Shown in pieces: positions 23,243-28,507 of a DNA stretch of 64,000 nucleotides. The position numbers and the translations under genes are program-made. Numbering within the stretch: the stretch's first letter is position 1; each line of letters starts with the position of its first letter. Location: contig JBDIVX010000011.1 of NCBI GenBank assembly GCA_039794305.1, positions 2,885-66,884 of the forward strand, in the 5' to 3' direction. The notes under the pieces are model-generated. The model was not told the DNA's origin. It searched no databases and worked only from the letters and a program-made list of their open reading frames with translations. Source of the stretch: Polyangiales bacterium. Its GTDB lineage: Bacteria > Myxococcota_A > Polyangia > Polyangiales > JBDIVX01.

Positions 23243-23812
23243 TCACAGCAGCTCGGACGTCAGCACCCAGCGCAGGGCGAGGCCGGCGGTGAGCTCCCAT
23301 TGATCCTGGTCGCGCGGGTCCAGATCGTCGCGGTGGTAGCGGACGCGGGCGAAGGGGATCAGCTTCGGGACCGGCACGGCGAACCAGTAGCCCTCGTTCC
23401 GTTCCGTCGCGCCCCGGTAGTGGCCGAGCCAGATCACGAGGCCCGCGCTCCCGCCGACATAGAAGGCGGCGCTCGGCGCGAAGGTCGCGTCGCGGATCGG
23501 TCCGCCGCCCTCGATCGAGAGCTCGGTACCGAAGGCCCAGAACCAGTGGCCGGGCTCGTACTGGTAGCCGAGCCGTGCGCCGAGGAGCCACCGCGACCCC
23601 TCCTTCGCGACGGCGCTCCCGTCGAGCACGAACGACGCGACCAGGCGGTGGCGCTGGAGGGGGACCGCCCCGACCAGCGCGACGTGGCTCCCGCCCGCGA
23701 ACCGGACGGGGCTGTCCGTCCGCACGCCGCCAGACGCGCCGAGCTCGGCCCCGCAGCCGAGCGCGCACGCCGCGAGGAGGGCGGCGAGGGCCGCGCGCCA
23801 CCGGCGGATCAC
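23243..23812 (-). CDS. Small beta-strand-rich (probable outer-membrane beta-barrel) lipoprotein
   Basis: GTG start overlapping the ceramidase stop, lipobox 'ALGC', amphipathic strands ending 'WELTAGLALRWVLTSELL'. Confidence 0.65.
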   Translation of the reverse strand: MIRRWRAALAALLAACALGCGAELGASGGVRTDSPVRFAGGSHVALVGAVPLQRHRLVASFVLDGSAVAKEGSRWLLGARLGYQYEPGHWFWAFGTELSIEGGGPIRDATFAPSAAFYVGGSAGLVIWLGHYRGATERNEGYWFAVPVPKLIPFARVRYHRDDLDPRDQDQWELTAGLALRWVLTSELL

Positions 23813-26714: not shown

Positions 26715-28507
26715 GGTGAGAATCGCCGCGTGGTGAGGCCCACGTCGAACCGGAAGCCGACCGCGTGCTCTGCGTTGGGGACCCAGCTGTAGTCGAGCGA
26801 CAAATCCACGAAGTACTGCGAGGAGTGCATCTCGCTGAACTCCTGACCGAAGAGCACGGTGAACAGCGGGAACACGAAGCGGTAGCGGTCCTTCGAGCCG
26901 CTGTCGGTCTCTCGGTAGTCGGGGTACCAGACGAACGAGTAGCGGCGGAACAGCGTCGGCTGCAGCCGCGCGCCCGCGAAGATCGTGCGCGGCCGCTGCC
27001 ATCCGCCCGGTCCCCCGCCGAGGGCCGTCATGGCCGGCCCGTGGAGCGCATCGGCCAGGCCGTCCGCGGCCAGGTAGACGAGCCCGTCGGCGGGCAGGTA
27101 TGCCCACGGGACGTGCGCGTGGACGCCGAGGCCGATCGAGCGGCCGCTGCCGTACCCGACCTCGGCCTCGAGCAAGCCCTCCACGCTCACGAAGGAGTCC
27201 ATGGCGGACGAGGTGACACCCTCGGCGGCGATGCCGCCGCCCAGGCGCGCCTGCACCATGCCTCCCCACCGGTCGTCTCGGGACACGGCGGGATCGCTCC
27301 GGAGATCGAACGGCTCGCCGCCGCCCCCACCGGCAACCGTGATCGAGAGGAAGGCGCCGAGCTGGGTGGCGAACCGCGGAGGAAGCGGCCGTGATGGCCG
27401 CGGTCGGATCATCTGACGGGTCACGTCCTCGACCAGCGACCAGTCCGCAGCGGAGGTGAGGCCGCGTGGGGAGGGCCCTGCGGCGCACGCATCGAATCCC
27501 GCGCGACCTCCGTGGACCGGCATCCCGCTCGCGATCCCGTCACGCACCGCTCCGATCACCTGCCCGAGGCTCACCCGCACCGCAGCGGCGACCCGCGCGC
27601 GGTCGACCTCCGTCAGGTGTGCGTCGCCGTGTGCGTGGTAGCTGTCGCCTCCGCCCCAGGGCGTCACCTCGAGCCCATGGCGGCAGTAGTAATCGTGCGT
27701 GCCCATGCGCTCGTTGTCCGAGCCGTAGCTTCCGACGACGTGCCCCGCCGAGAACGCGTCCTCCAGGAAGTGGAGCGCGAACGCCTCGGTCAACAGCATG
27801 CCCCACAAGGCGGCGGCCTGCGGCTCGAGGCACTGGCGCTCACCCGACGGGCAGACCCGGTGCACCTGCTGCGCACGGGAGAGCGCGGCGAGGTGGTAGT
27901 TCAGGTAGAGCGCCATCCCGTTGACCTCGTCGGCCACGACACGCCGCACGTACTCCGACAGCTCCTCGCCGAGTCGGCGCGGGAGCTGGAAGTGCGCGTT
28001 GCTGCCGGCCGCACGGCTGCGGTAGCCCGCGTCCACCGAGCGCATCTCGAGGTGGTGGACGTGCCACTCGTCCAGGCGTTCCCCGGACCCCACGCCCTCG
28101 GCGAGGGCTTGCTCCATTCGCTCCGCCTCGGCCAGCACGTCGTCGACCCACGGCACCTCGAGGACCCTGCCGAGCTCGTCCGGCGTGCACGAGTGGTCAC
28201 CCGCGAGCGCCGGCAGCGGCCCGAACCCGATCTGTCGCCGCATGCACCGGGGGCCTGCGTCACAAGTATCGGGCACGGCCGAGTCGGTCGCGCCGACGTC
28301 GCTGGCGAGCGGCAGCTCCGGCATGGCGCCTCGCACGACCCTCCAGATCGAGTCCAGCGTCCGGCGCTCGGCGTCCGGGAGCGTGCGAGCTCCTTCGACC
28401 GTGACGGCCGCGTGCTCGTGGAACAACCAGGCGCGGCACGGAGCAGCCCAAGCACAGACGAAGGCCACGCCGATCGCGACATCCCATGCGAACCTCACGC
28501 CACCCAT
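26711..28507 (-). CDS. Secreted Zn-metallo-phospholipase C-like protein with beta-strand-rich C-terminal domain
   Basis: Signal peptide ending 'CRA|WLFHEH', 'LAGDH', 'FALHFLEDAFSAGH', 'THDYY'. The C-terminal ~200 aa are alternating Gly/aromatic strands. Confidence 0.75.
   Translation of the reverse strand: MGGVRFAWDVAIGVAFVCAWAAPCRAWLFHEHAAVTVEGARTLPDAERRTLDSIWRVVRGAMPELPLASDVGATDSAVPDTCDAGPRCMRRQIGFGPLPALAGDHSCTPDELGRVLEVPWVDDVLAEAERMEQALAEGVGSGERLDEWHVHHLEMRSVDAGYRSRAAGSNAHFQLPRRLGEELSEYVRRVVADEVNGMALYLNYHLAALSRAQQVHRVCPSGERQCLEPQAAALWGMLLTEAFALHFLEDAFSAGHVVGSYGSDNERMGTHDYYCRHGLEVTPWGGGDSYHAHGDAHLTEVDRARVAAAVRVSLGQVIGAVRDGIASGMPVHGGRAGFDACAAGPSPRGLTSAADWSLVEDVTRQMIRPRPSRPLPPRFATQLGAFLSITVAGGGGGEPFDLRSDPAVSRDDRWGGMVQARLGGGIAAEGVTSSAMDSFVSVEGLLEAEVGYGSGRSIGLGVHAHVPWAYLPADGLVYLAADGLADALHGPAMTALGGGPGGWQRPRTIFAGARLQPTLFRRYSFVWYPDYRETDSGSKDRYRFVFPLFTVLFGQEFSEMHSSQYFVDLSLDYSWVPNAEHAVGFRFDVGLTTRRFSP

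Follow-up and report, generated by a model that had tools for sequence, protein, structure and literature searches.

Bacterial sphingolipid breakdown is poorly known outside Pseudomonas aeruginosa, where plcH and cerN place a phospholipase C (PLC) gene and a neutral-ceramidase-family gene side by side. PMC8634861, citing Okino and Ito (2007), states that the neutral ceramidase gene beside plcH raises PLC haemolysis in this organism. Here we describe a module of four open reading frames (ORFs) on the minus strand of a 64,000 nucleotide stretch of DNA (the window) from a Polyangiales bacterium (assembly GCA_039794305.1, contig JBDIVX010000011.1, positions 2,885 to 66,884). The module occupies positions 23243-28507 of the window and likewise brings a PLC-like gene (gene 1) together with a neutral-ceramidase homologue (gene 3). 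The construction differs from that in P. aeruginosa, where the PLC is unrelated to gene 1 and the enzymes are secreted and soluble, whereas in the module the PLC-like enzyme is fused to a beta-barrel, the ceramidase homologue is a lipoprotein and two module-specific barrels (genes 2 and 4) are interleaved with them. The pairing of a PLC with a neutral ceramidase is therefore already known; what is new is the putative barrel-fused phosphodiesterase family and the module-specific lipidated mini-barrels. A preliminary description made from the DNA letters alone knew of no account of this architecture, and none was found in the literature searched.

What are the closest described relatives of the individual parts? 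Members of the phospholipase C/P1-nuclease superfamily bind zinc through the amino group of an N-terminal tryptophan, Trp-1. The classical zinc PLCs (Pfam PF00882) share with gene 1 a helical fold that begins at the mature Trp-1 (VIA-align Z 8.3-9.3), and also the spacing H-x3-D-x5-H, which we take to be that of the known zinc PLC enzymes. Gene 1 differs from them in that there is no sequence relation, its domain is about 100 residues larger and fused to a barrel, and it lacks an invariant H-x3-E third-site motif. The S1/P1 nucleases (SmNuc1, 8qjl; S1, 5fb9; TBN1, 3w52) also have the fold of gene 1 (Z 8.1-9.6) and its Trp-1/His-6 spacing, but differ in sequence and in that gene 1 stands in a lipid-enzyme gene context. 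Small outer-membrane barrels (the OmpA N-domain, OmpX, NspA, OmpW, AlkL and PagL) superpose on gene 2 (Z up to 14.7) and on the C-terminal domain of gene 1 (Z up to 11.3). In contrast to these, genes 2 and 4 have no sequence relation to Pfam outer-membrane protein (OMP) families, carry an N-terminal lipobox cysteine and are confined to the module.

A further group, Legionella PlcA/B/C and the P. fluorescens PlcC family, was compared by description only. The available part of PMC2613904 puts the identity between the P. fluorescens PlcC group and putative Legionella PLCs at 43%, and reports that this group has no similarity to Gram-positive zinc PLCs; gene 1, too, is unlike the latter. The same part of that paper gives the P. 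fluorescens PlcC enzymes as having no signal peptide, unlike gene 1, and does not describe a fused barrel. As to substrates, PMC8634861 credits the zinc PLCs of C. perfringens and Listeria with activity on both sphingomyelin and glycerophospholipids, and describes a broad head-group range as typical of zinc PLCs.

Layout and conservation of the module

Genes 1 (26711-28507, 598 amino acids), 2 (26151-26714, 187 amino acids) and 3 (23809-26154, 781 amino acids) start with ATG, and gene 4 (23243-23812, 189 amino acids) with GTG. Adjoining genes share 4-bp start/stop overlaps, ATGA between genes 1 and 2 and between genes 2 and 3, and GTGA between genes 3 and 4, in DNA of about 70-75% G+C. An export leader is present in all four, and the leaders of genes 2, 3 and 4 end in a lipobox-like cysteine. 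In coordinates and anatomy the module is thus as the preliminary description had it. Upstream of gene 1 is a sigma-70-like promoter match (28523..28552, minus strand), a match to the consensus only, whose -10 hexamer stops 16 nt short of the gene 1 ATG. It is the sole such match in 22900-29800, where 0.1 would be expected from shuffled sequences. The flanks are unrelated.

Is the arrangement found elsewhere? Gene 1 relatives were surveyed at 80 genomic loci, the best 80 of 321. The order gene 1-gene 2-gene 3-gene 4 recurs in four other genomes (loci L001, L010, L062 and L077), that is, in 4 of the 61 loci with at least 3.5 kb of downstream sequence (4/80 overall). All three 4-bp overlaps are kept in L001, and the overlap of genes 2 and 3 is kept in all four loci. 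Gene 4 is matched by tblastn at each of them and a gene 2 orthologue is present at each too. The lipobox cysteines of genes 2, 3 and 4 are retained in the four orthologous loci, that of gene 4 in 5/5 orthologues. Five flanking genes of the window were also tested, and none is conserved in L001, L010, L062 or L077. Because the gene order recurs in four genomes and the tested flanking genes do not, the arrangement goes beyond chance. The neighbourhood search that the preliminary description had proposed as a check has accordingly found the linkage in other genomes, within a single gene 1 subclade.

This subclade has eight rows in a gene 1 tree of 77 rows, from which four loci with short or ambiguous ORFs were dropped. 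It contains the five ceramidase-linked gene 1 copies and has an SH-aLRT support of 91; the branching inside it is unsure because the branches are long. Another of its members, L006, lies on a contig too short to judge. In 251 sampled genomes of the class, gene 1-like matches (E<=1e-10) were found in 20, mostly as partial matches, and a gene 1-like and a gene 3-like sequence are adjacent in the window's own genome only. In the module-bearing genomes, five in number, the small-barrel family is matched ten times, exactly twice per genome and always within the module, and 1/251 sampled class genomes contains it, again the window's own. The four-gene envelope module is real, conserved and rare, and its linkage is held in one small gene 1 subclade.

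The neighbours of gene 1 relatives were also surveyed with a crude gene caller, at 70 of the 80 loci. This gave 365 neighbour proteins, of which 30 representatives were scanned, and among these 30 there is no recurrent gene 1 partner beyond clade-specific synteny. Of interest is a sister clade labelled Polyangiaceae (L002, L011, L004, L012, L005 and L008), in which several loci carry kinase and fatty-acid-oxidation genes 3' of the gene 1 homologue. On the same strand there follow a Ser/Thr protein kinase gene (5 loci) and then a FadB-like 3-hydroxyacyl-CoA dehydrogenase/enoyl-CoA hydratase gene (4 loci), with a thiolase gene next in L002.

The gene 1 family and its two domains

Gene 1 has no match to a Pfam or NCBIfam family. 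A search of solved structures with the single sequence gave one irrelevant hit (E 1.4), and the profile search gave none. A word-indexed search found 62 homologues, none of which has a Pfam domain; all those named in their source are a 'hypothetical protein'. The family is nevertheless large, as a profile built from 54 members matches 2752 cluster representatives at E<=0.001, 972 at 1e-10 and 365 at 1e-30. By record titles, the relatives belong to Myxococcota, Acidobacteriota, Calditrichota, Bacteroidota and Ignavibacteriota. A tblastn search of plasmids with the gene 1 domain gave just two weak matches, both to a 'hypothetical protein'.

The predicted protein consists of a signal peptide (residues 1-26; 28430..28507, minus strand), a helical domain (residues 27-381; 27365..28429), putatively a tri-zinc phosphodiesterase of the phospholipase C/P1-nuclease fold, and a C-terminal beta-barrel domain that resembles outer-membrane proteins (residues 382-598; 26714..27364). 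The predicted signal peptidase I site lies between CRA and W27, so that the mature chain would start at Trp-1. The same site, A-x-A followed by W, is found across the family, with A(-3) in 45/54, A(-1) in 49/54 and W(+1) in 52/54 members, and E31 and H32 are kept in 53/54. The sequence FALHFLEDAFSAGH is at residues 243-256. The mature N-terminal tryptophan noted in the preliminary description is thus borne out by the family. Twelve positions are unchanged in 54 homologues: D104, H105, D159, R165, H172, H205, H246, D250, H256, H271, D272 and D295. Candidate zinc ligands, judged from the sequence, are W27, H32, D104, H172 or H205, H246, D250, H256, H271, and D272 or D295.

An AlphaFold2 model from the family alignment has a mean predicted local distance difference test score (pLDDT) of 91 and a predicted template-modelling score (pTM) of 0.88. 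It shows a helical domain at about residues 27-370 and a beta-rich domain at residues 383-596. With VIA-align, residues 27 to about 325 match both branches of the tri-zinc superfamily: SmNuc1 (8qjl; Z 9.6, 168 aligned residues, root mean square deviation [rmsd] 3.6), C. absonum alpha-toxin (Z 9.3, 166 aligned, rmsd 4.1), B. cereus PLC (Z 8.6, 160 aligned, rmsd 3.9), S1 nuclease (Z 8.5), Listeria PLC (Z 8.3) and TBN1 (Z 8.1). For a helical domain these scores are only moderate, and PLCs and nucleases are tied. All six matches, however, begin at residue 27 of the gene 1 model, and four of them at residue 1 of the partner chain (1olp, 1ah7, 8cqm and 3w52). This common start at Trp-1, together with the H-x3-D-x5-H spacing, makes membership of the modelled N-terminal domain in the phospholipase C/P1-nuclease superfamily credible. 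The preliminary description had called gene 1 a zinc PLC of the Legionella/Pseudomonas kind. The tri-zinc fold is in accord with a zinc PLC, but the scores of PLCs and nucleases are level and the Pfam family of zinc PLCs has no match in the gene 1 family.

A lead, and only that, comes from feature neighbours in the ESM Atlas, which point to a PLC. For residues 27-381 these are a bacterial cluster without a name (0.90), a cluster auto-named 'Phospholipase C family protein' and made up mostly of Ascomycota (0.89), and one auto-named 'Dot/Icm T4SS effector family protein' (0.86). When only the core (residues 95-330) is used, the scores rise to 0.95 for the bacterial cluster and 0.92 for 'Phospholipase C family protein'. 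Among the matches listed for gene 1 there is no nuclease-named cluster.

The barrel of gene 1 itself had been overlooked in the earlier parts list. Residues 382-598 match Dot/Icm porin III (Z 11.3), a Thermus OMP (Z 10.6), the N-terminal barrel of OprF (Z 10.5, with 128 of 135 OprF residues aligned), a designed 8-stranded transmembrane barrel (Z 10.2) and NspA (Z 9.9), all by VIA-align, and the top Foldseek matches are OmpA, the Hbp beta-domain and OmpX. An aromatic residue is among the last three positions in 41/54 family members. Could gene 1 be an autotransporter? In the classical (type Va) form an N-terminal passenger is exported by a C-terminal barrel of 12 strands, whose pore is threaded by a linker helix. 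This reading is not favoured, as the Hbp and EspP beta-domains have target TM-scores of 0.22-0.35 in Foldseek, and VIA-align ranks 8-stranded barrels first, with NalP at Z 6.6. The barrels of genes 2 and 4 have no demonstrated homology with that of gene 1, since hhalign of the gene 1 family against either of their families gives 0.3%.

Related catalytic cores occur in other settings. Two proteins of 733-804 amino acids from the same class (L088:1175-3586, plus strand; L094:1137-3335, minus strand) combine an N-terminal eCIS_core domain (PF13699) with a gene 1-like core, and have in common with gene 1 the motif F-x-x-H-[FY]-L-T-D-x-F-[SA]-x-G-H. The eCIS_core domain is a marker of toxins carried as cargo by contractile injection systems. 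These fusions therefore suggest that the gene 1 type of catalytic module also serves as a cargo or polymorphic-toxin domain. A shorter sister family of 459-477 amino acids (L089:1375-2805, L091:1486-2862 and L092:1478-2884), with no Pfam match, has a leader that runs to an A-W junction, an EHQ start and the motif FADH[YL]LQDSFAAGH; its C-terminus is beta-rich and finishes with GGGAF or GGGSF. This is apparently a second form in which the catalytic core of gene 1 is fused to a barrel.

The ceramidase homologue and the small barrels

Gene 3 matches Pfam Ceramidase_alk (PF04734) with E 2.3e-60 and 205.1 bits, against a cut-off of 32.1. Among solved structures it matches P. aeruginosa neutral ceramidase (PDB 2zws) at 4.3e-34 and the human enzyme (4wgk) at 9.3e-30. 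Gene 3 residues H127, H129, R194, H338, E537, Y576 and Y588 correspond to H97, H99, R160, H204, E411, Y448 and Y460 of 2zws, presumably the zinc-site and catalytic residues, and all seven are unchanged in 15 homologues. This agrees with the neutral-ceramidase motif set noted in the preliminary description. The predicted lipobox cysteine, C17, is also invariant in 15 aligned homologues. On sequence grounds gene 3 is a lipoprotein homologue of neutral ceramidases in which every aligned catalytic residue is kept; the characterised members of this family are, to our knowledge, ceramidases without exception.

Relative to 2zws, gene 3 carries an insertion rich in Ala, Pro, Gly and Asp (about 90 residues, roughly residues 206-300; 25255..25539, minus strand), whose limits are approximate. 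The alignment is broken there, running from residue 35 to 205 (to chain residue 171 of 2zws) and then from 286 to 610 (from chain residue 149). The C-terminal region, about residues 620-781, has no family assigned to it. Three weaker Ceramidase_alk matches are present elsewhere in the host genome (C87:24138-24857, 58 bits; C64:6961-7704, 53.5 bits; C286:4361-4897, 27 bits), and lipoprotein leaders start many ceramidase homologues of the class.

Genes 2 and 4 are small lipoproteins with no match in Pfam or NCBIfam, and a word-based homologue search with gene 2 found only itself. BLASTP of gene 2 against gene 4 is not significant. Their families (five members each), when aligned by hhalign, match over the full length (96%, E 4.6e-9, 161 columns); the two genes are thus paralogues, a relation visible only from profile to profile. 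How rare are they? A joint gene 2/gene 4 profile found 10 proteins among 5.8 billion, the window's own gene 4 included, and a metagenome scan with a narrower gene 2 alignment found no relative.

The AlphaFold2 model of gene 2, made from 17 sequences (pLDDT 83, pTM 0.78), has eight strands of 10-17 residues. Its top ten VIA-align matches (Z 11.9-14.7) are nine OMPs (porin III, Thermus OMP, NspA, OprF, OmpA, OmpW, PagL, OprH and CarO) and a designed transmembrane barrel, and soluble barrels follow at 11.2 or below. Foldseek agrees on outer-membrane barrels, with no match at E<=0.001. The lipobox cysteine of gene 2, followed by AAQ, comes directly ahead of strand 1 in the model. The C-termini vary: gene 4 orthologues end in F in 2/5 and the window's gene 4 in LL, and the gene 2 copies have polar tails. 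Both genes had been proposed as beta-barrels, which the predicted eight strands of gene 2 and the paralogy of gene 4 support; what has to be added is that both encode lipoproteins.

Structure prediction of complexes, suggested earlier as a check, was carried out for gene 3 (residues 18-781) with mature gene 4 only. The pair gave an ipSAE interface score of 0.56 (runs at 0.56, 0.60 and 0.25) against 0.00 for the best of three controls, with contacts agreeing by at least 74% between runs and a partner pLDDT of at least 72. The mark used is passed by 116/157 solved complexes and 2/215 mismatched pairs; passes at 0.60 or below comprise 18/157 solved complexes and both of the passing mismatches. 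These benchmark counts hold only roughly because custom alignments were used.

Possible functions and the genes around the module

What might the module do? We see about an even chance that it is a conserved outer-membrane-associated lipid-catabolic operon. Gene 1 would be exported by Sec and cut by signal peptidase, which would free Trp-1 for zinc. Its helical domain, with the His/Asp set that includes H246-x3-D250-x5-H256, could then form a tri-zinc phosphodiesterase, tethered at the outer membrane by its own C-terminal 8-stranded barrel, that would cut the phosphodiester head group from a membrane phospholipid. The most economical guess for the substrate is a phosphosphingolipid, in which case the product would be ceramide. 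Gene 3, lipid-anchored and with an intact zinc site, would carry out a second step, in which the ceramide is hydrolysed to its fatty acid and its long-chain base. Genes 2 and 4 might be dedicated outer-membrane partners that dock the lipoprotein enzyme, or pass hydrophobic substrates or products on in the manner of OmpW and AlkL, which let hydrophobic molecules through. Gene structure, coupling, conservation, folds, the kept catalytic residues and the confinement of the small barrels to the module are observed; we infer that gene 1 acts on a lipid and not on nucleic acid, that this lipid is a sphingolipid, in which order the two enzymes act, what the small barrels do and which side of the membrane the enzymes face. 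That all four proteins form one outer-membrane machine for breakdown of prey or own phosphosphingolipids, with the ceramidase docked on a mini-barrel and the lipidated barrels handing on intermediates, is possible but doubtful.

On which side of the membrane would the enzymes be? The preliminary description had placed them at the surface. Both termini of 8-stranded outer-membrane barrels are normally periplasmic, and the gene 2 cysteine directly precedes strand 1, so that by default the gene 1 domain and the lipoprotein anchors would be periplasmic. By analogy with this canonical topology, surface display would need a non-canonical export, which speaks against the surface variant. Enzymes on the periplasmic face would be better suited to turnover of envelope lipids, whether the cell's own or imported, than to surface digestion.

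Outer-membrane sphingolipids have been reported in myxobacteria, as has predation on organisms that make sphingolipids. According to PMC11324152, phosphosphingolipids exist in bacteria, and some bacteria have sphingolipids in place of lipopolysaccharide, for which a Sorangium paper is cited there. The host genome has four alpha-oxoamine-synthase paralogues, one of them BioF and one Kbl. The other two fall below the NCBIfam serine-palmitoyltransferase cut-offs, the best scores being 309 and 283 bits against 640. The first of these (L146:6116-12189 on C24; 626 amino acids with an N-terminal extension; 309 bits) lies by a beta-ketoacyl synthase, an AMP-binding ligase and an acyl carrier protein, arranged like the Spt/AasR/AcpR set of sphingolipid-making bacteria as given in PMC11324152. 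From its sequence and setting the locus is possibly of the serine-palmitoyltransferase type; a clear orthologue of the paralogue (67% identity) is present in one of the four other module-bearing genomes. The second (L147 on C12) lies by two short-chain dehydrogenases, an enoyl-CoA hydratase and an HMG-CoA-synthase-like gene, a group that adjoins TamB-like and Omp85/POTRA genes.

Several observations weigh against the lipid-catabolic reading or its parts, and they bear on three other explanations. The first set concerns the identity of gene 1. Pfam Zn_dep_PLPC (PF00882) and S1-P1_nuclease (PF02265) each match 0/54 gene 1 family members at E<=10, and the host genome has no match to either. Alignment of the gene 1 family by hhalign with 11 PF00882 proteins gives 3.8% (E 0.011) and with seven S1/P1 nucleases, all from one phylum, 13.8% (E 0.002); neither is significant, and both alignments reach only the leader, the start from A-W to the following His and the first helix, over 49 columns in the case of the nucleases. 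Sequence by itself cannot tell a PLC from a nuclease here. Gene 1 might then be an outer-membrane-tethered nuclease or nucleotide phosphodiesterase of the S1/P1 type that scavenges phosphate or nucleotides, and its linkage to the ceramidase would reflect a shared nutrient-scavenging regulon rather than successive steps on a lipid. The top single fold match, SmNuc1, is a nuclease, although level with the PLCs; the gene 1 spacing W1-x4-H6 is as in the aligned S1/P1 sequences (AWG..GH); and the nuclease alignment is marginally the better of the two. However, nothing invariant in gene 1 corresponds to the invariant H-x3-D of the S1/P1 alignment (H167 and D171), as its H271 directly precedes D272, and a nuclease would hardly account for the 4-bp coupling to a ceramidase and module-specific barrels in five genomes or for the PLC-named ESM Atlas clusters at 0.89-0.92. 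We regard a nuclease as unlikely. A lipid rather than a nucleic-acid substrate for gene 1 is suggested by the ceramidase coupling in five genomes, the ESM Atlas lead and the FadB/thiolase context of the sister clade.

Other adverse points come from gene 3 and from distribution. On the NCBIfam neutral-ceramidase equivalog, which has a cut-off of 1200 bits, gene 3 scores 102 bits, PF04734 is its only match at E<=0.1 with no Ceramidase_alk_C listed, and it is about 30-40% identical to other homologues of its class; by sequence it is distant from the characterised ceramidases. No linked ceramidase is found at 57/61 testable gene 1 loci, and the neighbours in the gene 1 family are heterogeneous. 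Within the subclade of the module itself, L023 and L045 lack the ceramidase. Gene 3-like genes occur in at least 52/251 sampled class genomes, a floor because the first look was stricter, and they are common there with no gene 1 as a neighbour. Among genomes of the same order that have a gene 1 orthologue, the closest (G142) gave no match to gene 3. Gene 1 could strip head groups from glycerophospholipids, e.g. for phosphate recovery, and gene 3 could deacylate other N-acyl lipids (ornithine or amino lipids) or N-acyl amines. The broad head-group range of zinc PLCs (PMC8634861), the distance of gene 3 and the wide occurrence of ceramidase-family lipoproteins without gene 1 all favour such envelope lipids, yet gene 3 keeps all aligned catalytic positions of the solved ceramidase, the characterised members of its family are, as far as is known to us, all ceramidases, and the host's alpha-oxoamine-synthase cluster resembles the Spt/AasR/AcpR set; this explanation seems unlikely. 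Or do the genes form two enzyme-immunity or enzyme-chaperone pairs, with genes 1 and 3 as membrane-damaging effectors against competitors or prey, and genes 2 and 4 binding each its own enzyme and protecting the producer's envelope? The alternation of enzyme and small lipoprotein occurs twice, all translationally coupled, the small proteins are paralogous and found only with the enzymes, and distant relatives of the gene 1 core are fused to eCIS_core in L088 and L094. The predicted contact of gene 3 with gene 4, a weak pass that hints at binding, would suit such pairs; it also lends weak support to the lipid-catabolic reading, against which its weakness counts as well. But gene 2 is predicted to be an 8-stranded barrel nearest to integral OMPs, unlike known soluble immunity proteins, gene 1 would be held by its own barrel and not be a free secreted toxin, and no secretion or injection genes are present beside the module among the window neighbours examined. 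Such pairs are improbable.

As a lipid-catabolic operon, the module would be a concrete candidate for envelope-bound sphingolipid or phospholipid catabolism in a soil-type myxobacterium, and a second, independently built PLC and neutral ceramidase pair. It also offers a functional handle on two families without names, a widespread, putatively zinc-dependent barrel-fused phosphodiesterase and a very rare lipidated mini-barrel. If the single sphingolipid machine were true, no bacterial envelope complex for sphingolipid catabolism would precede it, and the gene 1 family would gain a first function. If gene 1 is a nuclease, the finding shrinks to a conserved, functionally mixed envelope operon.

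The genes around the module are of several kinds. Upstream of gene 1, at a distance of 114 bp and in the same orientation, is a 247-amino-acid ORF with a hydrophobic N-terminal leader (28622-29365, minus strand) that matches no Pfam family and is not conserved in the four related loci. On the other side, and convergent with gene 4, is a gene (22288-23193, plus strand) that ends 50 bp away and encodes a Cys-rich product of 301 amino acids; its leader is lipoprotein-like, and it contains a Kazal-type inhibitor domain (1.6e-05). Farther away are genes for cation/proton antiporters, a BioA-like aminotransferase, a response regulator and an apolipoprotein N-acyltransferase of the Lnt type (18068-19693, minus strand; LNT_N and CN_hydrolase domains). 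The last is consistent with a host that makes triacylated outer-membrane lipoproteins.

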